A stretch of 64,000 nucleotides of DNA from Proteromonas lacertae (GCA_002245135.1 NGBS01000299.1:124001-188000); one strand, 5' to 3'. Positions 12,569 to 63,700 are shown, counted from the first letter of the stretch. Numbers and translations: made by a program. The notes: generated by a model from the sequence alone, not told the origin.

Positions 12569-12707
12569 ACATATATAATATAGTAAATTCTTATATTTTT
12601 ATTTATCTATTTATCGTTTTTTATAATTGTGTTTTTGTGGAATTTGAAAAATGAAACGAAATTTTGGTTAAATTAAAAAATGCCCCACATTCTTAAAATT
12701 TAATAAA

Positions 12708-13923: not shown

Positions 13924-14020
13924 TTATTAATTATTAATCATTTAGTTTATTGTGTTTTTGTAATTTGTTTGTCAATTACATGATTATTACATTAAACTAA
14001 AACATTGTTATTTTAATGAA

Positions 14021-15331
14021 ATGAATGACGACGAGAAACTTATGATAAATAAAATGGTATATAAACATTACTAATAAATAGATTGAACAGTATAACAACT
14101 TTTCAAGGACTGTTGAAGGTACATGGAGAAAAAACACCTTGTTTCCTCTTGATCAAGTCGGAGAAGATTTAGCCTCTGTATTATGTCGTATATTGATGAT
14201 TATCTCTTTTTTTAATAGTTAATCGATATGAAATTTCCCAAATTCAATATAACTATTTGCAGATATGGTCATCAGATACAGAACATCCATATATGCTCGC
14301 TGTAAATTTTTTTGAAAAAATAAACGTAAATTATTATGACATATTTAAATACTACTTCATGATCTATCGTATAACATAATTTATATTTTTAATATTTAAT
14401 AGAAGAGCAAATAAACATGGATTCTTTCTTTCTCTTCACAATGTTATTCAGTTTTGGAGTTCCTGATAGTTTAGTTCGTGTTTTATTGTCTGTTTGTGGA
14501 ATTCAAACTAATTATGCCGTTACATTTAACCAATCAGTTAGTTTTATTAGAACTCTAAATGGTGAGTCACATCATGATGAAATGATCAAAGAATGGTTTG
14601 CAGAACAGTATATATTATATTATATTCTTATTTTAAATAATTCAAAAAATAGTGAAAAAGATGATAGAATTCCAATTCATCAAATAGTTCAATTATTCTC
14701 AACAAGTTCTGTGTTGTTAAAACCATTCAGAGAAATCAAAGATGCTCTAATAAAACACTTTATTACTGAAAAGATATATTACAATATAGGAAAGAGAAGG
14801 TTATATTATAACACTTACACTCCCAACAGTGATTTACTCTTTCCACCGGAACAATGTTTTGAGAAGTTTATGAGAGAAAATATATTGAAAAGACCACCAC
14901 CGTATTTCACTGAGTATAGAAAGCTGGGAGAAAAAGAAACAAAATCATTAGATTCTCTCATTATTCAAGTCAAAATTAGATATGGTTATTCAAGAAGATT
15001 CGTTAGTGCAAGGAATGGTTATAATAATACTAAATCAACTCTATCTAGTTACAGTATTAACAATGAATATGATGAAGGGATAAGACATATCTCAGAAATG
15101 ATGAAAAGTGGAAGAAATAATAGCAATTCGAGTGAGGTAAATAGACATCATCAACAGGATGTTATTGCTGGAAGAAAGCTTAGTAAAGAGTATGTTTCTA
15201 AAATGAGTAACGATGATCATTTGAAATTGCTATGTAGTGAAGCATCTAATCATTCATTATTAATTGCAAGTCGTTCAAAAATTAACACTAAAATTCATCC
15301 AGAATTTTCTGTACATTTTGCTACTGATTGA
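14021..15331 (+). CDS. Tandem family member 10
   Basis: ATG 14021, four introns; RVLLSVCGIQTN, PPEQC, PPPYFTEY, RYGYSRR. Confidence 0.87.
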
Positions 15332-15520
15332 AATTGATTAAAGGAAATGTATATATGTTTAATGGATTTTAATCTGTATCAGGTATTTTATATGTATATA
15401 TTTAAATAAATTTTTATGTTCTATTGTTTATTTTGCTTAAATTGTGGTTATTTTGAATAAATTGTTTGATCAAAAGTTTGAGCTACAGCCAATAGAAATC
15501 GTTATTAAGAATAATATCAA

Positions 15521-17309
15521 ATGGTCTTTATTTCACGTAAGGAAGAAGATCAGGTACATGATATGGTATTTTAGAGCGACTCTCTATATATTTTAAACAG
15601 ATAACAGCATATAATAACTTCACAACTACCGATAAAGGAAAGTGGCGCAAAACAGTTATTTTTGACTTAGACACAGTCTGCGTAGCATTAGCTCAAATAT
15701 GTTATTGTAAGTTTTAATTTTTTTAATTTTTATGTTGTAGTAACGAACTTTGAATTAGCTCAATGGCAGTTCGACTATTTATGTTTCTGGATTCGTGATA
15801 CAGATCATCCCTATATTATAGCTCCGATTTTTTTTGATCGTATACACTTGCCTTACACAGAATTACTCAAATCTTTCTTTAAACCTTTTAGTATTAATCA
15901 TCATGTGTTTATTATTATATAGATGAGCGTTTAACCATCGATAATTATCTGTTGTTCATCATTTTATTCGCATATAACAGAAATCATATCATTCTAAGAA
16001 TTTTACTTTCTGTTTGTAAGATACAAGGTAATGTTTCTGTAAATTATTCACAGTCGTTGTCATTCTTTTCGATGTTAAACACAGATGCTTTATTAGATCA
16101 AAAAATATTTGAATGGTTGCAAAACAAGTATATATATTCTATATATATTTTCTATTATTTCTTTATAGTAAAAATAAAGAAAGAATCTTAATTTCAGATT
16201 TAATAGAATTTGCAGTAACCAATGAAACATTACTAATACAAGTTAATGCAATCAAAAAGGCCTTAATCTCAAATGTTTTAGGCAAATACACTTACAATCG
16301 TGTAATGAGAAGAAAAATGTTTTATGACGATTATATAGCTTCAGTATCAAAGCAGAATCTTCCACCAGGATTAATAGCCACTACTATCAATGATAGAATG
16401 CCGCATGAATCATGTACGGAAAGAACAATTCGTAATTTAATAAAGAAATCACCTCCTCCATATTATACAGATTATCCTCCAGCAGTCGGTACTAGTATAG
16501 ATGCACAAAAGACTTTATTAGAACAATCAATAGTAAGTATCAGAGGGATGTTTGGAATGAATACTAAATTGTTATCTAGCAGATCTAGTAGATTATCAAA
16601 GAGTTCATTTCCTAAGATCCGACCGAGTTTGTTTTTGAATTCGCAGAAGAGTGAGAATCATAATGAAGCATCCTTTGGTGCTAAGGTTGCTAATACTCCA
16701 GCACATTATAGTATGAATTCTAAACTAGGTAATATCAACCATAACAATAATAATAATAATGAGCTGGGATTATTCTTTGGTGAAAAATCAAAATCAGCAA
16801 AAGGTATTGTTACACCTTCATTGAATGGTGATGTGGATAATAATAGATCACAATTAAAACACTCCAAAACTGAAAAGATGTCTGATATTGAAAATCCTGG
16901 ATCTATTAATAATATATTTTCATCAGATATTTCTAAAGTATCACCTGATTTAAATAAGAATGGTTGTGGTGTTAATGATTCTCCAAATATATTGAAGTCT
17001 TCTACTACAAGTAAGATACATCTATCAACTTATCAACCATCACCATCTCCTAAATCACCAAGTATTATCAAGCCACAGTTATCACAACAAAAGTTTCAAC
17101 AACAACATAGTAAAACAATGCCTCAATCCATTGTTATGCCAAATGACACTAGTTTTACAAATAAGCAAATGTCACCTCATAATTTTGGAGGTGGTATTAC
17201 TTTTAATGTATCTCCTAACAAAACTAGTCAGAATGGAACTTCCTTTTTGAAAGGTAGTAAATTAACAACTATTTCGTCTGTTCCTGGTCAAACCACTGAT
17301 CAGCTATAA
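15521..17309 (+). CDS. Tandem family member 11, with a long S/N/P-rich tail
   Basis: ATG 15521, four introns; RILLSVCKIQGN, PHESC, PPPYYTDY. The RYGYS motif has diverged to RGMFGM. Confidence 0.85.
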
Positions 17310-21518: not shown

Positions 21519-24500
21519 ATGGAATCTTTCAAAATCTCTCTTGATGTTCTTGAAAAATACGCTTTTGCAGAAGTATTTTTTGTATGTTTATATTTCTAGG
21601 ACAGAAGCGAGTATTTAAGAAGTATTGATGCTGAAACTAGTCAGCCTTTGTTATTAGTATAAATACTTCTATTATCATTATTATTTGTTATAGCTGTTGG
21701 ATTTACTTCACTCTCCTAAAGAAAATGAGAAAAAAATTAGAAATCTTGTAGGAGGGAAAGTAGGTGTATTTAATCACAATGAAGCTATTGAAAAATTAGT
21801 CAATTATCGTATTAAGATGAATGGAACTGAAGATGAAGTAGTAAAGTTCTTAATAGAAGAGTGGCATCTGCAATTTAACTTTAATAAGCCAGTATTAAAT
21901 ATTTGTAATAATAATATATAATAGACAAAAGGTAATTCAACAAACATTTCAGAATTACAAGATGAAAATGTACCAAACGCTGTTGATGATGAGAAAATCA
22001 AGTATCCTGCTCAGTTAAAAACAATTTTAGATGATAAAAACTCATTATTTAAGTTAGAAATGTTGATTAATTATGTAGATATTCATAACAAAGACTTTTG
22101 TGAAGATTTATTAAAAGGACAATTTCAGTGTAAAATTGAAAAAGATGAGAGAATGAAAATAATCAAGTATCTCTATGAACAAGAAGTTTTAATCGAATTA
22201 GAAGGATATATGAAGTATATAAAAGAATTATTAAAAGAGATAGAATATTGCAATTGTATATGTTATGATAAACTGACAATAAGTGATTTAGAAGATTTAA
22301 TAAAGAATAATTCAATTGTATTATCACAAGATGTCTTCATAATTCATTACATTATTGAATTAGGAAGTGATATAAACAAGAAGAGTGATGATTATAAGGA
22401 GAAAGTAAAGATTTACTTTGAAAAGTTGTTAAAGTTTAACAAATTATTACCATCTGAAGAAAAGAGTATTACTTATAGTGTTTTATATTCTATATTATAT
22501 ACAAATATAATATTAAACAATGATTTTGATGATAAATTATTCAAAGAGTGGATGAAAGCAGGTAAAACATACACTACCCATTTTCCATTTGATGATAATA
22601 AGATTAAAGCATATAATGATGATTCTGAAAGACAAATTTTCAACTGTATTATGAGAAATGTTGGATTAGACGGTGAAGTAGATAAATGTGGAATTACTAA
22701 GTTAATATATAAATACTTCTACCATTATTATGAAATGAATAAATCAATTGATGATTTTAGCAGTTATGTTAAGAATGATTGGTTTAATAGACAGAAATAT
22801 ACTTTAAATGTATATTTTGATAGAGAAGTTACTGCCAGTTTGAAATATTTAAATGATAAAGGTTTTGCAGATACAGTAGAATCAATTGAATTAGAAATCG
22901 ATGATTTTAACAGGACATACTTCCATGAAAATGAAACAATCGAAGTAACATGTTTCTTGAAGAACATTCCAGAATTAGAAATAAAAATGTTTGAAATTAA
23001 TACACTAGAATTTAAAAAAGTATATATATTATTCTAATTATTGTTATTTTGAATAGAGTAAAAAGTCATTAAATGAGTGGATTAAAGGAAATGAATTAGA
23101 TGGATTAATACCATCTTATGTAGATAAAAAAGACTATAACAACATCAAACATCATGTTTTACATAAAGAGTTATTCAGATTTGATAATATTATATTCAAT
23201 GGTGTTTATGTTATTGAATTAACAGGAAATGGTCATCAAAGTAGAATATTGGTCAATAGAGGTGAAATTAATTACATTAAGAAAGTAACACCAGATGGTT
23301 ATTTGTTTAACTTATTAAATGAATATAATTTACCATGTGATAATGAAAAATGCTCAATAATAATGAATGACAAAGAGTATAAATACAAGTAAAGAATGTA
23401 ATGGAATATTAATACCATTCATACATAAAGATAATGATAGTTCAAATAATGATTTATATTTATGTGTAAAAGAGAAGAATGAATCAGCTAATAATACCAA
23501 TCATATATATTCAATACCATCTAATTGTTATTTACATCCTGAATCTTATGAATTAAGAATTGGTATGTTATTGAATAATGAACATGTATTACAAGGAAAA
23601 CATAATAATCAGTTTATTATCCATCCTTTGTTATTGTTACAAAGTCAATATGAATGTTCATTATCATTATTACATAATATATCAATAGATATAGAATTAC
23701 ACTATTTAGATGATAGTAGAAGTAATCAACATATCAACATCAAAGAATTATTAGATAAAATTGACATAACTCCATATATAACCATAGATGATAATTTGGT
23801 TGATATAAATGTGAAAATGGAAGGCGAAATGGTTATTAATTATGAAAAAGTAAAGATCAGTGGTTGTTGCAGTTATAATTATGATAGAAACAGTCAAAAG
23901 AACATAATAACTCCATATTTAAGAATTAACAACAGTGGTAATTATGAGTTGAAAATCTTAGGTCAAAATGGAGAAATAATCAAAGATTTTATAACCAATA
24001 TAATATTCTTCAATACTGGCTTTTATATACCAATAAAATATACTCTTAAAAGTAATGAGAATGGTATTATTGAATTAGGCAAATTGAAAAATATCAAAAA
24101 GTTAGTAGTAGAAAATGTAAGTATAGAAATACCAAAACATAGAGTAGAATATCCAGATGATGTATCTTGTTTAGAAAGTGATGAAAATCAAATTGAATTG
24201 CCATTTAATAAAGAATTATATAGGTATTCGTTATTCTCATGTTGTAAAAGAACTAATTACAATAATAACATTGAAGTGAATGATACAAGTATGATTATTA
24301 AAGGTTTAAAAGAAGGAGAATATCTATTAAACATCTTCAATAAGGAATTAGTCAAAACAATTCATTTACACATATTGAGCAAAGAGAGTGTAGAATTGAA
24401 TAATTATTACTTATCTAAATGTATGGTAATAGAAAAAAGTAAAATAACAAAATATAGTTTAATACTACCACCTGTAATTAATGATGATAAAATCAAAATA

Positions 24501-27500
24501 AAAGTGAATAATTTCAACAATACATGTCAGATACATGTTTTGTGGAATTACTTTGTTAATAATTACGATATAAATGTATTACCAAAAGTTAGAAACTATT
24601 TGTTGAAAAATCAATCATATAAATATGAAACTGCCATATTGAACAATCGTAGACTTAGTGATGAATATGTATATGTAAAGAAGCGTAAGTCATATCAGTT
24701 AGGTAATTTACAGAATAGACCATCATTAATATTAGTAGAAGATAAAGTAAAACCAATTACTGTTAAATCTGCAAAAGTTTCTAATGGAAGTGGATTTGAA
24801 TCATCATGTGATTCATCATGTAAGCCATGTATGTGTTCTGCTGGAGGAATGGGAATGGGAATGGGAATGGGTTGTGGTTATCGTGGTGTTAATGTCAGTA
24901 ATGGTACTGGTGGTATTATAAACAAACAAATATATCCAAATTTCTTAAAACCATGTTTAATTGATTTTTATAATTGTGATGTTAATGATGATGGTTATAT
25001 AGAAATACCAAAGAATGAATTACCTTTCTTTGATAATGGTGGTTGTTTAACTATAATAGATCTTGATAATGATATTGGTAGTTGTTACAGTTATTCTGTT
25101 GATGATATAAAGAAAGAGAATCAACCATTTAGAAATCTTACAATCAAGAATAGAGTTGATGTGAATTGTCATTTGACATTATGTAGAGTAATAGAACCAA
25201 AATACAAAAATGAAGAAATGATAGTTAATACAGGAGATGAATATAAGATTATCGATAGTTTACAGGATGTATATTCAATATTCAGTAGTTGTCATAAAGT
25301 TAATGAAAATGAATTGAACAAATTCAGATTCTTAGTACATTGGAGTGATTTGAGTGAAAAAGAGAAGTTAGATAAATATAATGAGAATATTTGCCATGAA
25401 TTGAACTATTTTATTTACAAGAAAGACAAAGAATTCTTCAACAAATACATATTACCATTCATTAGTAATAAACTTGAAAAGAGTTTTGTTGATCTTTATT
25501 TGTTAAATTCAAATCTTGATGATTATTTACAATTAAAGAATTTCAAAGAATTGAATGTATTTGAAAAATGTTTGCTTTGTGAAAGACTTAATGAAAAAGG
25601 AAAATATATATTCAATCAAATAAGAGATGAGTTATTTGATAAGATAGAAGATGCTAATGAATTTAATAGAATATTTGAAATAGTTTTCAAAATCAATAAT
25701 GAGATAAATGAAGAAGATTCAAGTGAAGAAGAAGAAGAACCATGTGAAGAAGAAAATGAAGAAGATCATGAAGAAAATTCTTATAGATCAATAAATTCAT
25801 TTGCAAAATATGCTCCTACTTCACAATCATACAGATCATCTGAAATGGTGTTAAAAAAAGCAGTAAAGAAATGTAAAGCACCAATCCAAGCAAGAAGTAG
25901 AATGTTAAGAGGAGTTCCAACTCCTGGATTGATGATGGCTAGAATGGCAGTAACAAATGATGAGATGATACCTTATCAAAAGCAACCAAAAACTCAACAA
26001 ATAGTAGAAATGTCATATTATAACCATCATAGTTCAATTCAACCAAATTTACTGAAAGTTACAAAATATTGGGAAGATTATTGTGGATATATATTGAATC
26101 ATAATAAAGATGAATTATTCTTAAGTAAACATTTCTGTTATGAAGATAATTCCATAAATGATATAATATTACTGTTAGCAACATTAGATTTACCATTCAA
26201 AGTAGATAAAAGTGTAGAATATGTAAGTGAAAGTGAAGTGAATAAAATGGTAATGAAAAGTGATGTTATAGTATTCAAAAAGAGTTATAAAGAAGTTGAT
26301 GGAAAAACAGATGAAAGAAATGTCTCATTATTATGTAAATTCTATGATCCAAAAGATAAAAAGGAAATAATCAATGGAGTGTCATATCCAAAATATAAAA
26401 AAGATAATAACTATTTAAGTGGTGTAGAGTATGGCTATTGTATTTATATATCAAACTATTTACCAATAAACAAAACATATAATATATTAATATCATTCCC
26501 TGAAGGAAGTATACCAATAGGTGGTTCATTATCAACATATTCAAAAATTGTTACTATCAGATCATTTGAAACTCAAAAGATAGAATTAGGTAATTTTTAT
26601 TTCCCAAATGAAGGTAAATATAAATTATATCCTTGCCATGTTAGTGGATTAAATGGTGATTTAGAAGGTTGGTGTGAAGCATATGAGTTTAATGTAACAA
26701 AAGAGAAAATCAGTATTGATGAAAATTCTTGGTTAGATGTGTCAAGTAATGGTAATAATGATCAAATTATGAAATATTTAAAGAATCATTCATTAGAATC
26801 TGTTGATTTGAGTAATATCTATTATAAATTGATAGATAAAGAGTTTTATGAAATAATGATGAAATATTTAGAAGATAATTTACATTATGATGAAACAATA
26901 TATAGCTTTAGTTTATATCACAATGATAAAAGAAGAATATCTGATTATTTATCCAACAACAAACAGTTAATTGATATTCTATTACCATATAGTGAAAATA
27001 CAATCCTGAAAGTAGATGGATATGAGAAATTGTTGCATTATCAACACACTGAATATAATCCATTCATCAATCCAAGAATTCATACTTTAAAACAAATACC
27101 CAGAATAACAAGTGATGAAATGAAGAAAACATTAAATGATTTCTATTTATATGTTAGTAGTAAGAAAGTGTTAAATGATCATGATTATTATATCCATATT
27201 TATTATTTATTATTACAAGATCGAATTAAAGAGAGTGAAGAAATATTCAATAAATATATAGTGAAAGAAAGAAAGGATGGTATTCCAATTCCAAAGAATG
27301 AAGATTATAGATTACAATTTGATTATTTGTGTTGTTATTTTGATTGTTTCAAACTTACTCCAGAGTGTAGTAATGAAATAAGTAAAAAGTATTTAGATTA
27401 TGGAATTGAAAGTTGGCGTACTTTATTTAAAAGAATATACAATACAGTTAATAATAATACAAATGATATAAGCAGTTATAAAGATCGTGAAGATAGACAA

Positions 27501-28094
27501 TTACATGTTTCATCAATTACACCATCTTTAGCAATGAAGATAGATGCAAATGAAAATCAGTTGATAATCTCAAGTAATAACCTAGAAGAATGTCAAATCA
27601 ATTATTATATTATTGATACAGAATTGTTATTTAGTGATACACCATTTTTAAAGAAGATTGATTCATCAGTATATAATTATGTCTATCCCAATTACAGTGT
27701 AATTCAAAAGATAAGTGAAGAACATATGAAAATACCAATATTGGATGAATTTAAAAAGAAAACAGGAATAATTGAAATAGTTTATAATGGAAATCAAGTT
27801 CATGAATTATATAATTATTGCTTATTCAGTGTGATGATAAAAGAGAATATGGGAATATTGCAGATAATAGAGAATGAAAATCACAAACCATTACCTTGTG
27901 CTTATATAAAAGTATACAGCAAAGATGAGAATGATAAAGCTGAGTTTTATAAAGATGGATATAGTGATTTGAGTGGTAGATTTGATTATGCTTCGATTAG
28001 TACAGATCAAATGGATAATGCTGTTGAATTTGGCATTTTAATTATGAGTGAAAATCATGGAAGTTATATTACACAAGCAAAAGTGCCTAAGTAA
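21519..28094 (+). CDS. Large (~2,100 aa) uncharacterised protein with a C-terminal FYKDGYSDLSGRFDYAS motif; +1 frameshift near 23381
   Basis: ATG 21519 and four 5' introns join the ORF fragments. The reading continues across a 1-nt slip into the 1575-aa ORF, which ends YIKVYSK...FYKDGYSDLSGRFDYASISTD...ILIMSENHGS. Confidence 0.8.
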
Positions 28095-46745: not shown

Positions 46746-46912
46746 TCAAAGCATACACTGTTAGAATCTTATTTATTTAAATCTAGCCCTAACTTATATA
46801 AATACATAATTGAATATTATAGTTTATTATGTTGTTTCTTGATCTATTTCTACAGAAAATTCTTGTGTAAAGAAGGAGGTTTGTGCTAAGGCTTGAGTGA
46901 AATTAAAAAAAA

Positions 46913-48562
46913 ATGAATAAAACTCCCATAGGAATTGATCTCGGTACTACATTCTCATGCTGTGGAGTATATAAATCAGATAAAGTAGATATAATAGCAT
47001 ATAATAGCGGAAAAAGGACTATACCTTCAGCTGTGTATTATAACCCAGAAACAGATGAAATTGTTGTTGGTAGTGGTGCAAAAGATGATGCATCGAAAAG
47101 TTTAAAGGTTATTTATGACTCAAAGAGATTAATCGGCAGAAGTTTTGATGATCCTGTTGTTCAGAACGATATGAAACATTGGCCTTTTAAGGTAATCAAC
47201 TGTGATGGTGTTCCTAAAATTGAAACTACATATAATAATGCTACTGTAAAATTGTCAGCAAGTGATGTATCTTCAGAGATTTTGAAATGGATCAAGAAAC
47301 AAACTGATACATTCATAGATGAACACAAAGAAAATAGAAAAACAAAAGCAGTTATAACAGTTCCAGCATATTTTGATAATGAACAAAGAAAAGAAACAAA
47401 AGAAGCTGCAGAAAAAGCTAACTTGGAGGTAATTCAAATATTAAATGAACCAACAGCAGCAGCAATAGCATATGCCTATCAGAAAATGGGGAAGAATTTA
47501 AAAGAATTATCGAGGATGGGTGAAGATATATTTCTAATTTATGATTTTGGTGGTGGAACTTTTGATGTTTCAATTATCAAAGTATTCTATGATTTGAAAT
47601 TCATTCAAGTGCTAGCAACTGATGGAGATAGTCATTTGGGAGGAGAAGATATTGATCAAAGATTAATAGATTATTATTTAAAGAAATATAAAGAGATTAA
47701 TGGAACTGATTTTTTACCAAGTAGTAAATCTCATCCTGATTATGATAAATTAATGAAAAAGGTGATGAGGTTGAAAGTGTTAGTTGAAAGTGCAAAAATG
47801 ACTCTAAGTGATTCGCTTGAAACAACAGTAGATTGGTCAGTATTTGAAGATGAAGATGATAGTGTAAAGAAATTGACAAGAGCAAATTTTGATGCAATTT
47901 GTGAATTAGGTCAATTCTTTACTCCTGAAGAAATCAGTGAAAGGAAATATAAGAAGATATATAGCAGTACAATGGACTTAGTAGATAAAACCATTAAAGC
48001 TGCAAATTTAGAACATAAAGATATTGATAGAGTGATATTGGTTGGAGGATCTAGTAAAATAGTAAAAATTAGTGAATTATTAAGAAAGAAATTCCCAAAA
48101 GAGACTGTAATATCTAAAGATATAAATCCAGATGAAGTTGTAGCTCATGGTGCTACTCTCTTTGCTAATATTGAAGGTTTAAAATTTGCTGTTTCTGATG
48201 TTATTTCTCATAACATCTATACTAATATATTTGAAAATGGAAAAGATGATTTTGATTTAATTATTCCAAAGAACACATCACTTCCCCATCAATCTCTACA
48301 TCCTAAAACATATGGTACTTTTGAAGATAAACAAGGGTTTATGTACTTTGATATTTATGAAGGAGATGAGAATGGTAAGAAGAAATTAGAAAGTAAAAAG
48401 TTGGATTTGAAAGTTGATCATAAAGATAACAAAGCTGGAATGTACTATGTATCTTGTATATTTAATGTGGATAAAAGTGGGATTTTAACTGTTGAAGCTA
48501 CAGATTTACAAACAAATGAAACAACAACACTTTCTGTTCAACTCGCAGTAAGAAGTTTATAA
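46913..48562 (+). CDS. Divergent Hsp70 (549 aa), intronless, lacking the helical lid and EEVD
   Basis: GIDLGTTFS, TVPAYF, NEPTAAAIAY, YDFGGGTFDVS, HLGGEDID, LVGGSSKI, NPDEVVAHGA; ends just after the SBD-beta FNVDKSGILTVEA. Confidence 0.92.
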   Translation: MNKTPIGIDLGTTFSCCGVYKSDKVDIIAYNSGKRTIPSAVYYNPETDEIVVGSGAKDDASKSLKVIYDSKRLIGRSFDDPVVQNDMKHWPFKVINCDGVPKIETTYNNATVKLSASDVSSEILKWIKKQTDTFIDEHKENRKTKAVITVPAYFDNEQRKETKEAAEKANLEVIQILNEPTAAAIAYAYQKMGKNLKELSRMGEDIFLIYDFGGGTFDVSIIKVFYDLKFIQVLATDGDSHLGGEDIDQRLIDYYLKKYKEINGTDFLPSSKSHPDYDKLMKKVMRLKVLVESAKMTLSDSLETTVDWSVFEDEDDSVKKLTRANFDAICELGQFFTPEEISERKYKKIYSSTMDLVDKTIKAANLEHKDIDRVILVGGSSKIVKISELLRKKFPKETVISKDINPDEVVAHGATLFANIEGLKFAVSDVISHNIYTNIFENGKDDFDLIIPKNTSLPHQSLHPKTYGTFEDKQGFMYFDIYEGDENGKKKLESKKLDLKVDHKDNKAGMYYVSCIFNVDKSGILTVEATDLQTNETTTLSVQLAVRSL

Positions 48563-50089: not shown

Positions 50090-51374
50090 TTATTCAACTG
50101 ACTCATTTACTTTCCCAGGAATATTGCTAGTATTATTAAACGATGATCCATCATGTTCATGGAAAGATTTCATAATTTGAGTTAACTTAGATGAATGTTG
50201 AACTTGCAAAGTTGATGTTGATGGCATGGGCTTAATAACAACAGTTTTAGGATTTATAGCTCTAGTTAATGTCCTAGAAACAGAAAAATTAATTGACCTA
50301 TCATCATCTTCATCATTTGTACTGATTTTGCTTGTATATGATGAATTAACTCTTGATCTAGACCTTGTAGGAGTACAAGCATTCTGTGGAGCACGGCCAC
50401 ACATTATTGTAGATGTAGTGGTTGTAATATCACCATTCTTTTTAACATAATCAATCAATGGATTTTCTTTTCGATTGATATTATAATGATATTGAAAAAT
50501 AATCTTATAATATTGTATTAAATTGGCTAATATCTCATTCTTGTGTATAATATCTAACTCATAATCATATTTATAAGGATATGGATCTCTATTGATTAAT
50601 CTCTTTATTTTATTACTACATGATTCACATGGCATTATTCCATTATTCTCAGCTTTGTATGATTCTCTATAGAATATATGTTGTAATCTTCCATGTATCT
50701 CTTTTCTTCTATGTTTTGACTTTATTATTAAGCATTGAATCTCATGGTGTATTTTCTGCCATTTGTATATTGCTATTGGATGTTTCTTTAAGAAGTTTTT
50801 AAATTGTTCAAATGGTAATGGATATTCTGATGCATGTTTCTTTCGAAAGATTTCTAAATATTTTTCGTTGGCTGTATCTGATAACACTGTCATTGCTATT
50901 TCCTATATTATTATATTTATATAATTAATTAATACAAGTGAAATTGAACCTTCATAATTAAATCCATATATTGTAATGATCACTAGTATTAATATCATAT
51001 ATGAAGTAAGTATACACATTATAGATACATCTAAAGGAAGAAAACCAACACAACATATAAATCTGAAAAAATGTTCCCATTCCAATTCCTCTATACATGG
51101 ATATACTGTATATTACTATACTATATGCAACAAAATATCTTTTTATGAAAGTTATATTATCACATTTCACTTTATGACAAAATGATTCATAAGTAATAGA
51201 AATTGCACATCTAAGAGTAATAAATCTATATACCCTTTACAAAACTCTTTATATATATTAAAAACATCACTCACCTCCCTTTCGTTAACTACGCAATTAA
51301 ATAACGACTATTATACAGAAACAGAAACAAGCTATCCTTTTGGATTCTTGAGACAGATATATAGTTGAGGACAT
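50090..51374 (-). CDS. Dispersed, divergent 12th member of the tandem family
   Basis: ATG 51374. Introns at three of the family positions (CF|xN, AY|xE, M|LII). MPCESCSNKIKRLINRDPYPYKYDY corresponds to PxESCxxKxxR...PPPYYxDY. Confidence 0.8.
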
Positions 51375-51507: not shown

Positions 51508-54500
51508 ATGAATGAGTTTTATATTACATTTATATTGTTTTCCATGCTATTTTATCAATGTGTATGTATAAAAATAGGGTTATTAGAAGATACATCCACA
51601 TCTGGTAGTAATTCAAGAATTACCAACGCATTTACTAAATACAGTGATGCTGCAAAACGGTATAGTGACAATGTAAAGTTTGAAACGTTTCAATATAATT
51701 ACCAAAGTGATGACTTTTCAACTTTATGGAAGAATATCGAAAATAATGTAACTGGTGTTGATGTTATAGTATCGTCATGTAGTTTCCTACTGCATGATAC
51801 TTCCATTGACAAATATTCAATTATTTCTGACTCATCTGTGACTATGTGGTGTGGTATTGAAGATTATTTTTCACTTTGTATTAAAAATATATATTTTTAC
51901 AGTTCAAGTAAAGCTTTCATTTATAGATGTATAATTTTTTTATTATTTTATACATCACTAGTTGCAGAATACCTATTATATTATAAACCAGACCGGAAAT
52001 TACTCATCTTATCAGATGAATCAAGACAATCATCAAGCTATTATAAATACTTTAGAGATGTTGTTAATGCATTAGAACTTGATTCGATAGTTGATAATAT
52101 TACAGTTTCTTTACCAATGACAAGTAGTGAACATAATACAATAATTTCAAAGTTAAGTACAACAGTTGAAGTGGTGGATTTATTATCAGAAGCAAATGCA
52201 AAAACACTGATTTCACTATCAACAACTGGAATTACATTTTATCATTCACCATTATTACCAGAACAAGATAGTCTTGTTGATGCTGCAAATACTCATTATC
52301 ATTTACTATCTGTAATAGACAGTTATGATCTTCCACCATCAAAATTAAAAGATTTGAGAAATATCTTATATCCAGCTGCTTCAAATACTCATTTACATTA
52401 CGATGAAGTTCAATTTACTTCTGTTTTCTATATTGTTTTTCAAATATTTTCTAGAATTAGAAACAGCAATTATCGTGCTATTATTGGATCTTCATTATTA
52501 TTAGAATTCACAACTTATATTGATAAAATAAAAATAATGAATGATTTTCATTTTGATACTGATTATTATATTGGTAAATATGATAGTATTACAGGAAAAT
52601 TAGAATATGAGTATACACAAACTAATAATTGGTATGATGTTTATTACATTTATGGAAAACCGAATATACAATATCAATGTAATTATTATAATGAAATATC
52701 CACTACAACTGGCAAATCAAAATCAACATCTGTAATATTTGTGTTTTTTATTGATTTGACTTACTCTGAAAAAGATATTAATGAAAACATGTATGTATTA
52801 ATGATGATGATGCAAGAAGTGTCGAATATTGTTAGAAATGTATAATATATTTACATTATTTTACAAACTTTATAGGGAAATATTTCATTTTCATCAGATA
52901 TAGTAGTTGAGCCAGCAATAATACCATATAGTCCTGATTCTAGTAAATTACCTGCAATAATTGGGCAATTAGCTGGTTATGTTGTGTCAGGGAGAGCAAG
53001 TGGAGTGTTTGTAATAGTTCCTGGTGAAGATAAGATAAGAATGATTAATGGTATATATACTTTAGTTTATTTATTGTTGTATAGATATTTCAAGCGTTCC
53101 TTTCCCAATATTGATATATCATATTGGTGTAGAAGAAGGAGAAAAATGTAATAGTAAAGTAATATTTGCAGGAACATCATGTGGACAAGAAGCCAAAATA
53201 ATATTAGAAATGCTTAGATCTGAAAAAATGAGTATGGTTTATATAGTCGCATCATTAACACCAGTTTCTCAAACTTGTATGAAAGTGATGGAATTTACAT
53301 TTGCAGAGAATGGAATAGAAGTTGTTGGAAGTATTGATATTCTTGGTGTTAAGAAAGAAGATGGAATTCCTGTAGCACAAGCAATAGAAGGAAGTTTAAA
53401 GGAAGATGATCCATTTTATATTATTAATCTAGCAGAAGGAAAATATTATCCTGCTATAATACATGGACTAGCTACTATAGGTGCAGATTATTATCATACT
53501 ATAAATGCTTTGATTAATGAATATGATATCAAGTCTGTAGATCAAAATGAACTAGATGATAGTGGTATACAATATTTTGTAACTGTCTTTCATAATGGGA
53601 TGAAAGGAAGTTTGATGGACGAAATTAAAGGAGTAGTGACTAGTAGAATTGGTAGAAGTAATGATGTTTTTATTACTTCCAATTTTTTCATTGTTCATAA
53701 TCTGTTTAAATTGTATGTGAAGGCTGTAACCTATTCACAATCAACAGATCCTATATATTATCAAAAGTATAGTTATTCACTTTATGTTATTTCTAGATTT
53801 TTTTACAATTATCCTATTATCAATGAGAATGAAATATATTTGATTTCATCAGCAAATTATGCAGATACACAATTATATATTTTATCTTTTGATGTATATA
53901 TATATATATATATATTATTTCTTATAGTCAAATGGTTATGAACAAGTTCGTGAAAGTAGAGGTGTTTTCCGTTCATCTGCATTTATTAATCGAACTATTC
54001 AATGTAATTTCGTTCAAATTTATTCTGGTATTTATTATATAAATATAGATGTATAGATTTAAATTATGATAACATAAATAAGAATGACGCATATACAGTG
54101 ATTGTGTTATTTAATCCATTTGATAATTCTCATGCTAGTTATATTATTGATTTTGAGTTTATTTTTCAGATTATTAATGAGTTGAAGATAAACGGAAGAT
54201 CTCTTTTAATCAGGTATTACACAGTGAATGAAACAGATGAGGAAACATATATAGATGCTATTGAAAACTCATATGAAGAGTATGGTGATGATTTGTTATG
54301 TTTTATTACATCTTTATCATATCTTTTTTATTATTTTATTTGATTGGTATTGTAGATTTCTTAATTACATTGTAAAGCAGAAATGGCTGCATCATTCGCA
54401 TTTGTATTAGAAGATATTGACAGATTGTTACTTATTCCACCACAAGTTGAAGAAGCAATTTGTTTAAAGAATATTATTGTGGTATAAGTACAATATTTTA

Positions 54501-57500
54501 ATGTTGTGTAGGTTGGACCAGTTTTATTTCAAAGAATATTATTTGGTATTATTGAAATGGTGAGATTAGTACAGAATCTTTTAATTGTTACTGATGAACC
54601 ATCATATTTTGCTACTGTAATTAAATTCATCAAAGTCTATTCTTCAAGATTAGGAGTTACTTGTTGTTTAAATGATGTTGTTGATTATCATAATGAAGTT
54701 ACTTCTAGTCAATTAATTAAAGCTATAGATGATGGTTTTTCTACTGTAAATCATGGAGCAATAATACTATTATCAAAAGATTATACTGAAGATGTTTTAG
54801 AAATGATTTATAATTCGAAATACAATAATCATGATGTTTGGCCTGTAATTGCTTATGATGTTGATGAAAAAACGGTCAAAGAATCTACAAACCCTGAAAT
54901 ATGGGAGAATATTTATATTCCAGGAATTTATATGCCAGATAGAGAAAATAATGAAAATGTCATTCTTAGAAGATATTTAAATAAGTTCTATGGTAGGAGT
55001 TATAAAATCCTTACTAATAATATAATGACTATGTATGAATCATTGTTGTTTGTGAAGAATGCAGTTGAAATGACCTATTCAGTTAGTGCTCATATTCTTA
55101 AGAAGGCAATGTATGGTAGAAAGTTTAATACTCCAGAAGGATTAATCGCTCTAAGAGAATCTAATCATTTTGATCATTATGTATCTGTTGGTAAAGTTGT
55201 TAATATTACAGGAGAAATGGAGTTAGTTTCATGGTTTCAATTCAGTGAATCAATTATTCCAACAGTTTATTTACCTTTATTTGAAGGTGGCTATTTCATT
55301 TGCGATGCTAGTAGTGATAATTCTACAGGAAAAACAGTTGAAAAATCAATAACATTTTTGTTTATAGGTAATTATAATAATGAACCTGATGAATCTTTCA
55401 GAATATTGTTAATATTGCAAGGTATGGTGAATAGTGTAAATTCAGAAGGTGGATTGTTTGGTTATACTGTTGTATATTGTTGTTTCTTTATTTTGGTTAA
55501 TAGGAATTAGCTACTCTTACATGTGTGAATAATGAAACTGCTGCTTCAGCTGTTGCTATACAATCTGTTGGTTTAGGATCAGCAATTGTAATGAGTAATT
55601 GTGATTCACATGATCAAAAATTGTTATATGAAGCATTTAAAACTGTTCATTTAACTATTTTATCTTTTGGAGAGAATATAGGAGGAGAATGCATTGAGAA
55701 TATGTATTTTTATTAATCTGTTTATATTTATAGGGTATATGCTCATTCTTCTCCATATCAAGATGTTATCACTACAATGATAGAATTCATTCAAAAAGAA
55801 TATAATTCATATTATCTTATCACTGTGAAAGATCTAAGTTTATATAAAAGATTTGAAGTAGCAGATAAATTTTTAGATGTTTTATCACAGAGATATAATT
55901 ATAGTATTATTGAAGATGCTAATACTGTTGATGATGCATATATTGAAGAAATAGTATATAAGGCAATAGATTTATTTGGTAATGAAGGAGGATTAATATT
56001 TACTTTTTTACCAGCCAATTTAGTCAAAAGACTCATGAGAGTATATAAAATATATACATCAAAGCTATTGTATGAAGGTAATATATTCTTTGCATATTAT
56101 GGTGATTTAAATTATGATGAATTAGCTTATTCTGACTGTATTGGTAATTATATGGTTGCGCATTACAACCCATATAACACAAGTAAAGAGAATATTGCCT
56201 TTAAAACATTGATGGGTGATTCATTTAGAGGATCTGAATATCGCTACTCTGATATATTAGCTTACAGCGTATTTTTGTTATGGAAAAATCTTGTTCTATC
56301 AGCACATCAATTGTCAGTTGAAGCAATAACAAATCAAATGAAAAGTGTGTCAGTTAATTCTCCATTAGGTGTTATTAGCGTTGATGAATCTCAACATTTG
56401 AAACAATCAATTTTCATTATAAATATTGCTGAAGAATATAATGATTCATTAGTTACACATATTTCTCAGAATATTAGTGGAAATCCTTTCTTTGAGGCTT
56501 TTAATTCAGAATCAGTAAGTTTATGTGATTTAGAAATTAGAAAAACTAATAATTACCAACCAAATTTATATTATGTAGGTATATCATTACCATTAGATAA
56601 ATTATCCACTTCAAATGCTATGTATATTTTAAGAGGTGTTTTAAGTGGAATTGAATATGTAAATAGTAAAATATCAAAATCCACTGATTTATATATTGTT
56701 CCATATATTTTGAAAGATGAAAATGATGAAGATTTATATTTAGAATCTGTAGAAGCATATGGTAAATTATTGGCAAAACACAATAATACAATTAGAGGAG
56801 GAATAATTATAGGAAGTGGAACATTATATCTTTTTATAAGTATTTATTTTTACACTTAGTAATTCTTAATTTTATTTACAAATTTTATAAATGCAACAGA
56901 TTTATATGAAGAATATAATATTATATACTTTTTTGTTGGAAGATATCTTGGTGCTACTTGTGAAAAGAATATTGTGTATATGACCGAATCAATCTATAAT
57001 AACGTATATATTATATTTATTATATATATAGTTTGTGTTTATCAATTCAATTGTAAGTTTTGGAAAAGAGACAATATGTATAACATATGATAAATCTGAA
57101 TTGTCAACATCAATTTATACATATTTAAAAACACAATTAGAGAGAATAGGAAAAACTGTAATTGATATTATGTTAAGTGAAGATAGATCTAATACAGATG
57201 GAGCGTTAGTAACATTACCAGTTTTAATGCCAGATGGTGGAGTTATCGTTAGTTTGTTGCAAGGAAAATTGTCGAAAGAATTACTTATATCATTGTACAA
57301 ATATAATCTTCAAGAACCTGATTATCATATAATGTGTTATTTCTATGATTCAATTGTTACTACTTATTATCTAACAGCTCCATTAAATACATATGTTTGG
57401 ACTTATTTTGCTGATACTGATTCTCAACAATATAAATTTATAAACAGTATATTTTCTAATATGTTATATTCTGATGAAAAAGCACTTTTATCATTTGCTG

Positions 57501-60500
57501 TGATGGAATTATGGTGTAATGAAGTTATAATGAATAATAATCGAGATATGAAATATTTACTTCAGAATATGTATGATAAAACATTAAATACAGTAATGGG
57601 TAATATCAAATTTGAAACATCTAATACTATTAGTAATACACTTAGTCTTTTCTATTTTAATGGAAAACTAAACGTGTATTATGATTCTAGCTATTATGTT
57701 AGAGTCACTGTTTATAACTTTTATAGTGAGAAAGTTTTAACGTGTGATTGGATAAAAAATAAAGATACAGGTGGTATAAATGAAAAAAGAATTATTAAAA
57801 TAGCATTATTACATAGTGTGTATGGAAGTGAAGCACCATTTGCTAGAACTTGGTTTTTAGGTTTTGAAATAGCAGCACAATACATTAATCAAATAATTAC
57901 TAATTCCATTTTAGTAATAAAAGTGTTTAATGATGATTCTGATATATCTAAAAGAAGGCAACAGTTAGAACTTATATATGAAGAATATAGTGATGTAGAA
58001 GTGATTTTTGGATGTAGAACTTATCAATGTTTATATCAAGTCGAAGATATTATTAAAAGACATCCAGATAAGTTATTTATTAGTACAGCAAGAAGTGTAG
58101 GAATGAAATGTAATAAGAACATAATTATAACTGGAGGAACACCAAATCAATTCTTAGAACCTGCTATTAATCATGCAATATCATTTGATAAATATTCAAA
58201 ACTGTATTTCATTGGTATGAATGATACATTCTGTCATACTTTATATGATATGATGCAATCTATATATGGAGGATTAATTAAAGTAGCTGGTGCATTTTTC
58301 GTTGAAGACACTCAATATGTTGTTGATGTATCAAAATTGTATGAAGCAAAAGATGCGTTAGGTGATTCTGGTTTATTTATAGTTGCATTATCATCGTCAA
58401 TCCTTATTAATTTTGTAAAATCCTTCAACAAATATCAATTTGATAAACAGAAATATGGTATTTTTACATTAATCAATGAACCAAATGAATTAATTCAAAA
58501 TGTTTCACCAGAAGAATATGAAAATATATATTTCATTGGTTCATATTTTAAAGGAATGGAAACAAATTATTCTGATGTGATATATTATTATATGTCTAAT
58601 AATAATTATAGTGTATCATTCACAAAATCATTTCAAACGTTTATGTTATGGAGTGATTCATATTTTGATTTGAATAAGACAAATCCAACAGTTGATGAAA
58701 TGAGAAAAAGAATGTATGTTACTCCAATTAAAGGAATCAGAAATAGAGTGCAATTACATACCAATAATTATTTAATTCAATCAGTTTTAACAATCCAAAT
58801 GCAAAAAGATGGAACATATGATATAATTGTACCAGAATCTGATCTTATTATCCCTAGAGATTTTGATATACTTTATGAGAAATCATACAATTGGAAATGT
58901 GACTTTAACACTGGAGAAATTGTACATGACGATGTTAGAATGATTCTATTTGCTTTGTCTTTATCTGGTGAAGATAATGATTATTATAAAGGAGTAGTAA
59001 GTGTTATTGAGATATTCATTAATACTGCATCTAATGAGAATATCTTACCATATCTATTATCTTACATAGTGAAAGATATTAAATCTGATGATGATACTTG
59101 TATTAACGTTATTAATCAATATAAATCAAAAGTAATAGCAGTTTTTGGTACACCAACAAAACTGTGTGCTGAATCAATTGATTTTGATGATAGTAATGTT
59201 TTATTCTTCAATTTTGGTATAAGATCTGGAGATGTATGCAAAAGAAATTATTTTTACACTTATTTGGATATATCTCAATACAGTGAACCAATAAGTTCAA
59301 TTGCATATACTAATACGAATGGAATAGCTGTAATTGGATGGGAAAGACATGCTAGTTATGTTGCTGATTTATTAAATACATTATTATCTGATATATTATG
59401 GGTAAAATATGTAACAATTAATACTGATCCGTATGAAATTTTAAATGATCCAAGTGTAACTATTCATGCAGATATGGCAATTATATATTGTGGGCCATAT
59501 GATTTTAATAGAGCATTCCAAAAAGTATTAATGGAAAAAGGATATGGAATAGGTGACATAGAATACATTTCATTTACTGATAGTATGAGTAATATTGATG
59601 GATTAGATCTAACTACATATTATTATTCACCTTACTTTTTAGAAATTGAAAGTGAGAGTAATAAGAGATTTAGTAATTTGATTACTAATTTAGTAGGTAG
59701 TTTAGATTTATCTTTTGAAATGGAAGTATTGTATACTAGTGTATATTTTATATCTTTCACCTATATATTTTTTTATAGTTGGTTATGTATTATAAAGTAC
59801 TTCAAATTGTCATTGATACAGATAATAGTAATGCAATTCTTAATGAACTATTAGCTCTTAGTTTTGATTCTCCAGAAGGTGTTGTTTCATTCACAAAAGA
59901 CCATCACTTGAAACATTCCATTAGAAATTTTGATGTTATGAAAGGTGGATTAGGTAGTTATGAAAGTAGTTTTGTATCAGGAGAAGCATTTTTATATAAC
60001 TATTCTTTACCAACACATAGATTCTGTATATTTGATAAGAATCTGCCAGTGATAAATAGCAAAGAAGTTAATTATTTTGCTTTAGTATTATCTAATTTTG
60101 ATAGTGAATATTACCTATTACATGCTGCTTTATATGCTGTAAATGTGATTAATAGGGATGGTGGATTAGGTGGTAATTATATAGGATTAAAAACCTATTA
60201 TTGTTCATATGAATATGAGGATTGTTATAATCATATATTACAGTATCAAATTGATGAAAATGTCCTATTTATTATTGTTGGAAATAGTGATGATGCACTT
60301 TATTATTATTACGATAAAATGAGAAAAAATAATGAAACTGAGTATTTTCTAATCGATTTTCCTCAATCAAGTCATAATCTTTGTAATGATTTAGGATTTC
60401 ATTTTTCTGCTACTGAAAATCAAATAGCAGAATCTGTTGGTGTATCTTTCAGTAGAAACTGGAATTAGAGTGTTCATAGTATATTCTGATAGATATAAAT

Positions 60501-63500
60501 CTTTAATGGAATATGCTAAATCTTATTATACTAGATATAATATGAATATCTGTGGTAGTTCTATACTAAATGATGTGAATAATATTGATTATGTACTTGA
60601 TTTAATAACAGTGAATGATGCGACTACCATATTAGATTTTACTGATTTAGAAGTATCTACTCTTTTCAGAAGAAGTTATTGTGAATTGATACTAGACTCA
60701 ATAAAATATCCAATCATTGGCATTTATCATGAAAGTGAATATTTTGCTGTTCCTTCAGAATGTTTAATTGGTCATTATTATGTGACTACATTCCATGAAA
60801 CACTTGGTAATTCTGGCCAACCACAAGGTGTACCAACCCCAATAACTGCAAATACTTTTGTTGTTGATATGAAAGGATATATAGGAAAGAATGAAGCTAT
60901 TCTACCAATAACAGAGCAATTATATTCAGCAATGAGTAGTTTTGGTCAAATATATAAAGAGATATATACAAATGATCCAACAGTAGTTCGTAAATCATTA
61001 ATCAATAGATTCTTTAATACACCAAGTGGTGGTATGTCTATATCTGATTCATATTTTGTTGAGAGAAGAATTTGGGCTGTTCATTATACAAATGATGGTC
61101 CAGAATTAGTATATTGTATAGATGTAGCAATTGCTCCAGATATATTTAATTTATATGATAGTAATAAATATGGATCAACGTGTGTATTAGATGATAATTA
61201 TAAAACAATAATTGTAAAACAGAGGACAAAATTATTATTATTCTATCATGAGTTTACTGGTTATGATCAATTAAATGAAATTACAAGAGCAATGTTAGAA
61301 GAAGTGGTTGTTAACCAGATGAATAGAGATAAAGTATTTCCACATATTACATTAATTCCAAAATTCGTCTTTGGTTATATAGATAATTTTTATTTAGAAA
61401 AACAATCAAAAGAGTATTTATTCAATGAAGATGTTATAGGTGTATTTGGATGTACAACTCCATTCTGTAGAAATGGTGTAGCTAAATCATATGATGAAGA
61501 AAGGAAATTGTTCTTTTATACTGGTTATAATGAAGGAGAAACTTGTTCAAAGTATATATTGAATTTTGGAAGCTTACCAAATCAAAAATTAGATGCAATT
61601 TTCACATATGCTAAGAGAAGTGATATTGTTACATTTTTGTTGCTTGCCAATGAGGATGAATATTCTTCACTCTATATTAATCAAACTTTACAATATATTG
61701 ATAATAATAATAACTCATTGTTAGGTGTTTGTAGATTCGATATGTATGATAAGAAGAAAAATGTGAGTGGTTTAAATGATTGTATTAATTATTATTTCTA
61801 TAACAACTTAATAAATGGGAGATTAGCTGTCTTGACATTCTATTATGGAGATTCTTTAACAAATTACATACAGTATTTAATAGATGGTAAATTTAATCCA
61901 AGACAAGCTGTTCATTTTCTTTTATTCTTTGATAGAAATTCATTGAAAAGAATGAATTTGGGAATCTTACAAAATAGTTATATAGTAACATTATATGAAC
62001 CAAGTATAGTATCTGATGAAAATAATTTATATACCATGACAATGAAGAATGAAATATATCACAATATATATGTTTCTGAGAATATGGAAATTACATACAC
62101 TGCAATGAAGTTTTGGAAAGAGATGAGTTTAACGGCAATGAGTAGAAATGGTGGAGTTATTCCAAATCAAGAATATATGCGTATGTTATCTAAAGAAATA
62201 TTGTCACAGTCACCATCATGTTCTGTTAGTTTAAAGAGATCAAATTTTATAACAAATTGTCCTTATATATTACAAGTAACTGAAGATGGTAAAGCAATTC
62301 AAGTATATCCTACATCTGGTGAACAAGTGATGATTGATCCAAAACCATATGTGAATGATGAAGATACAAAAGAAAAGTGTTCATTTGGTAAACTAGAATC
62401 TATATATGATTATCCTTATGGTGTTGTTTTAACAATAAGGATTATTTATTACATTTTAATGGCAGTGATATTGTTACTGATAATATTTATAAAGAAATAT
62501 GATACTACAAGAATTATTAGATTATCATCTCCTCCATTTTTATACAGTATATTAGCTGGATTGTTGTTTTTATCAACAACTTCGTTATTCTTTACATTTA
62601 GGCCAAAAGATCAACCATGGGTATGTGATGCGAGAGTATGGTGCTTATCTTTGTCAATTTGTATTGTGTTTGGTATTTTACTAACAAAAGCGTGGAGAAT
62701 TCACAAGTTATTCAACAATCAACAATTGAAGAAAGTTACTATATCAAATACACAATTGTTTAGAATGGTAGGAATAATTGTAGTTGTTCAATGTGTTTAT
62801 ATAATGATATGGTGGCTTGTTGATCCATCTCATGAAACTTACAACATTAATGATGGCTATTCATCATATTGGGAAGATGTGTATATATCAGAATGTACTG
62901 AATCATATCCCTTTATAGTGATAGAATTATTACTGATGATTGCATTCATGTGTTGGGGTGCTCATCTTGCATGGAAAGTAAGAAGAGCAAGTGAAGAATT
63001 TAATGAGTCAATTTCATTAGCATTTACTGTTATTGGTATTTTATTCATTGGTTTTATATGTATAATACTGAATTTTATGCTTGAATCTGAACCACCAACT
63101 TTAATGATTATTAGAGGTATAGGTATTGAATTAGGTGTTGTGATTATTATATTCTTCCAGTTTATAACTAAAATGATCAATGTTTATGCTGAAATATATG
63201 GTGACAGTACTACTTTTGTTAATGGATCAACTGAACTTTCATCAAGAGCATCTAAAAAGATAAAGAAATCAATAATTCAATCAACAAGATATAGTAAAAC
63301 TGTTTCAAGAGATGTAAAAATATTCTGTGTTAATCCATATAAATCAACTGATTATAAAGATCTAGCAACTTCCATGTTACCATATATTAAGTATCTAGAT
63401 CCTGATTTAATGAAAGTAGGAGATGCAGATATTGATGATAAAATGGAGATATTTGATCCAAGAAGTTCTTTAGGAGGTTATCATAAATCTTTAGTTAGAG

Positions 63501-63700
63501 TTTCCTGCTTGAATCCTACTCCTAGTAATACAGCTCCTATAAATCTTAATACTAGTCGTAAAGATAATAATGCTAGTAATATTACAATTCCTAATAGTAA
63601 TGCTACAAGTGTATCAAACCTTAATCGAACTTGTCCTTCAACCATATCTTTGAAATTAGTTCCTGTTCCTGAATTAGATTTTGAGGAGATGAAAAAGTAG
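51508..63700 (+). CDS. Giant class C (7tm_3)-like GPCR, ~3,900 aa, with about nine tandem UrtA/AmiC-like periplasmic-binding domains; +1 frameshift near 60440
   Basis: Signal peptide, 13 introns. The 7TM carries class C motifs IIRLSSPPFLYSILAG, CDARVW, ILLTKAWRIHKLF, LAWKVR...FNES. Repeats carry IFGC...[E/G]GxxCxxNIxxxGxxPNQ. Confidence 0.88.
54319..54375 (+). other. U12-type-like AT-AA intron (57 nt, phase 2) in GPCR repeat 3
   Basis: Donor ATATCTTTT, branch TTCTTAAT with its A 11 nt from the end, terminal TGTAA. Removal restores the frame CFITSLS-AEMAAS. Confidence 0.72.
56826..56879 (+). other. U12-type AT-AC intron (54 nt, phase 2) in GPCR repeat 5
   Basis: Donor ATATCTTTT, branch TTCTTAAT with its A 10 nt from the end, terminal TTTAC. 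Removal deletes in-frame TAG TAA and gives IIGSGTL-NFINATD. Confidence 0.85.

Follow-up and report, generated by a model that had tools for sequence, protein, structure and literature searches.

The 64,000-nucleotide stretch of Proteromonas lacertae DNA analysed here (GCA_002245135.1, NGBS01000299.1:124001-188000; hereafter the window) contains at 51508-63700, on the plus strand, a gene predicted to encode a giant class C-like G protein-coupled receptor (GPCR). Its predicted order is a signal-peptide-like N-terminus, nine type I periplasmic-binding modules of ~385 amino acids (aa), a GABA-B-like seven-transmembrane (7TM) domain of the 7tm_3 family, and a tail. The spliced gene model runs from an ATG at 51508 to a TAG at 63700 and comprises 3,918 aa, 12 introns and one skipped base, in keeping with the ~3,900-aa protein of the original prediction. 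The modules are most like the bacterial urea-binding protein UrtA, and we lean, on sequence comparison and without strong conviction, towards the reading that the window protein is a chemoreceptor at the cell surface whose ancestor was a multivalent urea sensor and which itself likely binds ligands other than urea.

Nine periplasmic-binding modules and a class C-like 7TM domain

The modules were scored with a profile that combined 104 modules taken from other proteins and excluded the window and P0001 sequences, and with ~300 shuffles per module (P numbers designate proteins recovered in our searches). All nine window modules scored above their shuffles, modules 2-9 with 66-218 bits against a maximum below 10 and module 1 weakly. 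In a weaker, leave-one-out test that used the window modules alone, modules 3-9 were supported, module 2 was marginal and module 1 failed. The module starts below lie within ~10 nt of those originally predicted, and the sequence motifs then quoted for modules 6 and 9 are present in the open reading frames (ORFs).

51508-51567, plus strand: start codon and signal-peptide-like N-terminus, with a hydrophobic 19-mer at aa 8
51568-52722, plus strand: module 1, the most diverged; 14.7 bits against a shuffle maximum of 4.6; both conserved Cys
52723-54085, plus strand: module 2; 66 bits; 1/8 urea residues
54086-55342, plus strand: module 3; 138 bits; Peripla_BP_5 at 35 bits; 2/8 urea residues
55343-56565, plus strand: module 4; 111 bits; best match P0013 module 1; 1/8 urea residues
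56566-57790, plus strand: module 5; 130 bits; 0/8 urea residues
57791-58930, plus strand: module 6; 197 bits; Protein Data Bank (PDB) match UrtA 8HIC, E 6e-9; 0/8 urea residues
58931-60063, plus strand: module 7; 134 bits; 0/8 urea residues
60064-61222, plus strand: module 8, with a frameshift inside; 146 bits when read through; 77%/63% identical to P0001
61223-62398, plus strand: module 9, membrane-proximal; 218 bits; 2/8 urea residues
62411-63175, plus strand: 7TM domain (7tm_3); TM3 KAWR, TM6 FNES, WVC...CTE Cys pair; nearest solved structure GABA-B2
63176-63700, plus strand: Ser/Thr-rich cytoplasmic tail and TAG stop; 66% identical to P0001

A Pfam scan of the gene's 10 ORF pieces placed Peripla_BP_5 above its cut-off in four, and no ANF or NCD3G domain was matched in the window ORFs. 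The TIGR03407 cut-off of 492.75 was not reached by the modules scanned (module 6, 56.5; module 9, 67.9; module 1, no match). The conserved Cys pair is kept in 9/9 modules. A predicted model of module 1 adopts a periplasmic-binding fold (predicted local distance difference test, pLDDT, 67), a match that we discount because the underlying alignment was mostly UrtA and hence biased.

The 7TM domain scored 140.9 bits for 7tm_3 against a cut-off of 33.5, and its best PDB sequence match was GABA-B2 (E 1e-19). It carries the class C marks as defined in PMC3727952, namely a TM3 Lys/Arg (KAWR), a TM6 acidic residue (FNES) and the extracellular Cys pair (WVC/CTE). An AlphaFold model of modules 8-9 and the 7TM of P0001 (pLDDT 84; predicted template modelling score, pTM, 0.79) contains seven helices and a type I flytrap that leads through a short stalk into TM1, with no cysteine-rich domain; 93 of its 1,052 residues, most of them belonging to the N-lobe of module 8, fall below pLDDT 50. 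Its top Foldseek match was GABA-B, with a different flytrap-to-7TM orientation (root mean square deviation, rmsd, ~25). The counterpart of module 9 in this model matched UrtA 7S6F with Z 42.6 (rmsd 2.5 over 376 residues), AmiC with Z 40.5 and mGlu8 with Z 32.9. Nine UrtA/AmiC-type modules with a type I periplasmic-binding fold, followed by a class C-like 7TM, had been proposed for this gene, and the profile, domain and structure comparisons agree with each of these points.

Relatives in several lineages

A HMMER search against 1.84 billion representatives returned many long relatives, and both Peripla_BP_5 and 7tm_3 were present in 19 of the 21 chosen for Pfam. A word-index search of proteins of 1,909-5,000 aa gave no match, whereas the full HMMER search did recover such proteins; two scans of metagenome contigs yielded no receptor locus, and the Atlas held only class C clusters with a single flytrap. 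P0197 (4,080 aa) and P0198 (3,909 aa) each combine a signal-like start, nine modules and 7tm_3 in a single ORF of balanced composition. P0015 (3,745 aa), likewise balanced in composition, has at least nine modules and 7tm_3 in a single ORF, its first module being incomplete. The architecture is not confined to the window genome; the family spans several lineages and includes members with intact urea sites.

One group of relatives is AT-biased like the window (FYMINK/GARP 2.5-3.9), and its 7TMs form a single group of 16 of the 55 rows in the 7TM tree (support 99/97), in which 32 of 57 module-free receptors were sampled. These AT-rich relatives begin mid-module, as expected because introns cut the ORFs, and judged from their sequences the receptor family is expanded in this lineage. 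Module order is fixed: 6/6 modules of P0013 find their best matches, one after the other, in window modules 4-9, and the last module best matches window module 9 in 12/12 relatives, with the remaining positions noisier. Module 9 is also the best conserved against P0013 (37% identical, compared with 23-33% for modules 4-8). Relatives in which one ORF covers the 7TM together with modules 4-9 or 3-9 support the proposal of a single polypeptide.

The urea site

UrtA closes on urea in a flytrap-like manner, and eight conserved residues form its urea site (W120, S122, Y141, Q144, E146, Y190, N246 and S274; PMC10392092). Mutation of W120, S122, Q144, Y190 or N246 strongly reduced or abolished binding (PMC10392092). 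All eight were present in 80/80 bacterial UrtA, these being the best 80 of 421 retrieved with patterns from the eukaryotic proteins and so query-biased. Complete sites also occurred in 8/9 modules of P0197, 7/9 of P0198 and 5/9 of P0015, or 20/27 altogether, and relatives with such intact sites are predicted urea sensors. The last, membrane-proximal module of these three proteins retains 1/8 urea residues in each.

In the window protein, 9/9 modules keep only 0-2 of the eight residues, with positions in diverged modules taken from a multiple alignment in which single cells may be off. Module 6 has none, and module 9 has two, the equivalents of Tyr141 and Glu146. No module among 91 in the AT-rich clade has more than three of the eight, and both Cys are kept in 83/91. 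These counts make urea or amide binding by the window protein unlikely and speak against the suggestion that modules 6 and 9 are urea- or amide-binding.

Origin of the modules

The Cys pair occurs in 35/80 bacterial UrtA, most of them from cyanobacteria and most carrying a CDWSDPxKG tail; the modules of P0015 end in the same type of tail. Modules of the relatives reach 388 bits, with the CDWSDP-type C-terminal extension included. In a 58-row module tree, for which 32 of the 80 bacterial rows were used, canonical eukaryotic modules join the Cys-pair cyanobacterial UrtA (100/99). Two bacterial rows stand among the eukaryotic modules, and a single eukaryotic clade was not rejected (approximately unbiased test, p-AU 0.59). 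A mixture-model tree, obtained by quick search and with long branches, placed window modules 6 and 9 within the receptor-module group (SH-like approximate likelihood ratio, SH-aLRT, 96). The bacterial origin proposed for the fold is therefore supported and, from the 100/99 grouping, the Cys pair and the tail, narrowed to a likely donor of the cyanobacterial UrtA type.

Gene model and introns

The gene model contains the following 12 introns.

51929-51961, plus strand: GT-AG intron, 33 nt, in frame and optional for frame; likely, in module 1; intron signals
52840-52875, plus strand: GT-AG intron, 36 nt; frame joining, intron signals
53051-53084, plus strand: GT-AG intron, 34 nt; frame joining, intron signals
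53894-53927, plus strand: GT-AG intron, 34 nt; frame joining, intron signals
54028-54056, plus strand: GT-AG intron, 29 nt; frame joining, intron signals
54319-54375, plus strand: U12-like intron, ATATCTTT...TTCTTAAT, inferred AT-AA ends, 57 nt; chosen by eye; UrtA spacing
54482-54511, plus strand: GT-AG intron, 30 nt; gene model, intron signals
55472-55503, plus strand: GT-AG intron, 32 nt; frame joining, intron signals
55704-55733, plus strand: GT-AG intron, 30 nt; P0013 alignment across the junction without a gap
56826-56879, plus strand: U12-like AT-AC intron, 54 nt; ATATCTTT/TTCTTAAT signals; 2-residue gap against P0013
57004-57031, plus strand: GT-AG intron, 28 nt; frame joining
59741-59778, plus strand: GT-AG intron, 38 nt; gapless against P0013; P0001 starts immediately downstream

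Ten of the 12 have the form GTA...TAG, with a length of 28-38 nt and an AT content of 77-93%; an AT-rich GTA...TAG element in the required phase arose by chance in 19/1,503 control windows (1.3%). U12-type introns are marked by an RTATCCTT-like donor and, 10-20 nt before the 3' end, a TTCCTTAAC-like branch site. The two U12-like introns, at 54319 and 56826, are so called from sequence signals, each having ATATCTTT and TTCTTAAT with 10-11 nt left to the 3' end. The 3' end selected for intron 54319-54375 yields 31 residues between the Trp site and the first Cys, as in UrtA and most homologs. For this intron AT-AC ends were rejected because a stop results, as was a sole GT-AG intron at 54348-54378, which is out of phase (worked by hand). 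The AT-AA end that it requires is rare. Both U12-like introns are in phase 2, at offsets of 77 and 86 aa in modules 3 and 5. Module-wise exon shuffling was also rejected, since the introns sit within modules and their phases are mixed.

Introns of ~30 nt, AT-AC U12 introns and a TGTTTGTT end motif are traits of Blastocystis, and the 28-38-nt and U12-like introns of the receptor gene are reminiscent of that genus (PMC5608401, PMC10639083).

A one-base frameshift in module 8

60433-60440, plus strand: one-base frameshift; the unshifted frame stops at 60466-60468; located by tblastn of P0001

Splicing had been proposed to join all ORF fragments, which holds for the breaks bridged by introns and fails at ~60436, where the junction is a one-base frameshift. 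In tblastn of P0001 the frame switches by one base at 60437/60438, and the assembled frame ends at 60466, at aa 2842, so that the window copy does not have the intact reading frame first assumed for it. An intron at 60436 was rejected, as every GT-AG option of 13-40 nt would remove residues that P0001 and P0013 have in common with the window protein. No intron interrupts the site in P0001 (72% identical) or in any of the cluster members extending across it (11/11), all of which read through, and the P0013 alignment at this point is gapless. Beyond the shift, 1,086 codons follow without a stop, module 8 remains 63% identical to P0001 (77% before the shift), and no other lesion was found in the 11.7 kb of coding sequence. 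From the read-through in relatives, the lack of other lesions and the 63-77% identity to P0001, the shift is either an assembly error or a recent null allele, the former being more likely than a real lesion. If the shift is real, the strain would make a secreted protein of 2,841 aa (modules 1-7 and a portion of module 8) or carry a recently dead allele, while the family as such works. We judge this unlikely, if deserving of serious consideration: the extra base lies outside any homopolymer and one member of a family expanded in the AT-rich clade may be dispensable, but the otherwise undamaged coding sequence, the conservation maintained downstream and the open frame in all spanning relatives speak against it.

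Proposed mechanism and alternative readings

In class C receptors, closure of the flytrap leads to activation of the 7TM domain, and a flytrap-type module measures several nanometres. A eukaryote would have acquired, by gene transfer, a UrtA of the cyanobacterial type, which then became joined to 7tm_3 and was copied several times over. Where relatives have intact sites, binding of urea would shut several of the distal clamshells, and this movement would propagate down a chain stiffened by disulfides as far as the degenerate module next to the membrane. Carried on the 7TM by a short stalk like that of GABA-B, this last module would be the transducer that releases the TM3-TM6 lock. The chain would sense tens of nanometres from the membrane, and in the window lineage, where each position has its own sequence, it would read several small molecules or host-gut cues. 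A more far-reaching version is that these proteins form an unrecognised multi-lineage protist family of giant class C GPCRs with nine cyanobacterial-UrtA copies. Its intact-site members would be dedicated urea-sensing GPCRs that use multivalent allostery through a ligand-blind ninth module, and in a gut protist lineage the family would have grown and each of the nine fixed positions would have been retuned to a different ligand, so that one receptor integrates a combinatorial signal; we offer this version as tentative and, taken as a whole, rather doubtful.

The modules could instead be spacers, a fold with a disulfide, in a ligand-free stalk or in an adhesion or mechanosensing rod of which only the tip or module 9 matters. 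Urea sites are all lost while both Cys persist in most AT-rich modules, the module order is fixed, the window protein has 31 N-glycosylation sequons, and the two-module model is a confident, rigid arrangement (pTM 0.79), all of which would suit a rod. The position-specific sequence identity that persists among relatives just 20-30% alike would not be needed in a plain spacer, however, and the lock residues of the 7TM are intact, so that we consider a rod unlikely, though not negligible. That modules 6 and 9 still sense urea or short amides would accord with UrtA and AmiC as the closest folds and with the Tyr141 and Glu146 equivalents in module 9, but it is highly improbable given that W120, S122, Q144, Y190 and N246, the residues with the functional weight reported in PMC10392092, are all replaced in both modules. 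Least credible of all is a set of several separate genes for secreted binding proteins and a short GPCR. Stops do break the ORFs, and Blastocystis can create stop codons through polyadenylation, as described in PMC5608401; yet the breaks lie within modules and carry intron signals, relatives hold modules 3-9 or 4-9 on one ORF, 0/8 of the window's TGTTTGTT motifs lie inside the gene, and no internal signal-like start was seen in the model protein.

Several observations weigh against the chemoreceptor reading and the history proposed for it. The assembled window copy is frameshifted, and its splice junctions in modules 1-2 are without homolog support. TM7 has TK instead of the class C PK, with the Lys retained, and the pairwise identity among window modules, 9-20%, is compatible with a ligand-free scaffold too. 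As to the donor, the bacterial UrtA set was query-biased, branches in the module tree are long and composition is odd; with the tail removed, the cyanobacterial profile was preferred by only 33/51 clade modules, the preference being reversed for window modules 4, 8 and 9. In the 7TM tree the receptors with several modules do not form a single clade (five changes, at least two forced), so that either the fusion or the nine-fold array may have had more than one origin. Finally, signal-transduction genes and nucleotide cyclases are described as lost in Blastocystis in PMC12129017, and the output of the receptor may accordingly be non-canonical.

Comparison with known systems

Among solved receptors, GABA-B (GABBR2) is alike in its 7TM, GABA-B2 being the best PDB match, and in a type I flytrap on a short stalk with no cysteine-rich domain. 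It differs in having one flytrap rather than nine, of ANF type (Z ~33) rather than UrtA-derived (Z 42.6), and the window receptor differs from it at TM7 (TK). Metazoan receptors of the mGluR/CaSR/GABA-B type in general have a single ANF-type Venus flytrap, with or without NCD3G, compared with nine Peripla_BP_5-type modules here. Cyanobacterial UrtA (7S6E, 7S6F, 8HIC) and AmiC (1PEA) share the fold, and 35/80 bacterial UrtA share the Cys pair, whereas each is a single soluble ABC-importer component or regulator instead of a nine-fold chain on a 7TM, and the window's lineage is without the urea residues of UrtA.

Non-metazoan class C receptors with Bmp, OpuAC, SBP_bac_1 and Peripla_BP domains are known (PMC3251606, PMC3971589, PMC3727952), so the recruitment of periplasmic-binding domains onto 7tm_3 is shared. 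In the passages covered, N-termini of up to 1,667 aa are given (PMC3251606), and a tandem array, UrtA identity and a urea ligand go unmentioned. Capsaspora owczarzaki CAOG_05347 (XP_004347032.2), annotated automatically only, likewise has several Peripla_BP_5 stretches and 7tm_3, but it is shorter (2,173 aa, 4-5 stretches), keeps 1 and 3 of the 8 urea residues in the two modules scored, and has a 7TM outside the window's clade. Neither a tandem UrtA-GPCR array nor the UrtA identity of its modules nor urea as its ligand was the subject of any paper that turned up in a literature search that left subscription journals mostly uncovered and in which supplements may list copy numbers; Supplementary file 12 of PMC12716839, on receptor architectures, may bear on novelty. 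Supplement files of PMC12129017 gave no match to PF13433, 7tm_3 or G-alpha among the 12 searched. The original remark that no characterised receptor with this architecture was known stands for the literature found, with the qualification that the pair Peripla_BP//7tm_3, without copy number, already appears in a 2014 supplementary figure of PMC3971589. What goes beyond the descriptions found is the nine-fold array, the UrtA identity and the relatives with intact urea sites; bacterial binding domains on 7tm_3 were known.

Class C models assume one flytrap per protomer, and a chain of nine raises the question of how distal closure reaches the 7TM. Modules of the intact-site relatives are the most testable part and, if they bind urea, would make these proteins candidates for a urea-sensing GPCR. 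In addition, the family shows how a GPCR took up a binding protein of bacterial origin, at a stage when the donor type remains readable. If the lineage is Blastocystis-like, expanded giant receptors would contrast with the reported loss of signalling genes and would offer large surface antigens.

UrtA-type modules with 8/8 residues were also seen in P0199 (Pfiesteria, EukProt) and P0205 (NCBI), in Ephrin_rec_like and PF06011 architectures without a full 7tm_3, and more than one kind of eukaryotic receptor may have taken up the module. P0200-P0204 (JGI), long kinase/TPR/cyclase and histidine-kinase multi-domain proteins with one UrtA domain each, are probably prokaryotic, and their composition suggests candidate urea-sensing signalling proteins. 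Other very long ectodomains stand on 7tm_3 in P0127 and P0099 (21 TIG repeats; TIG and beta-helix), which indicates that giant repeat ectodomains are recurrent on class C-type 7TMs.

Genomic context

The window is eukaryotic DNA of ~27% GC whose other genes are unremarkable for a protist (among them Rft1, CTNNBL1, Hsp70, a CDPK-like kinase and a formin), and no second UrtA-type module or 7TM was found outside the receptor gene within its 64 kb. Its GC content falls between the published Blastocystis ranges of 21-23% and 39-55% and fits neither, and the TGTTTGTT motif is not enriched (8 observed, 6.6 expected); for these two reasons, and despite the fit of the introns, we infer a Blastocystis-like affinity with reserve.

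A divergent Hsp70 lies at 46907-48562 (plus strand), matching profile positions 2-497 of 599, with the C-terminal part absent from the ORF. At 23367-28094 (plus strand) there is an ORF of 1,575 aa with no Pfam match. Eleven paralogous genes stand in tandem at ~1850-17300 (plus strand), ~24-38% identical over longer aligned stretches and with PPPxYTxY and RYGYSRR motifs in common; Pfam gave no match above cut-off in the 5 pieces scanned, and the Atlas gave only a weak lead, to EF-hand (0.88). The neighbour of the receptor gene at 50090-50902 (minus strand), oriented divergently from it, was not recovered by tblastn at E 1e-3; it contains an ESC...DPYPYKYDY stretch that by eye is like the tandem family.

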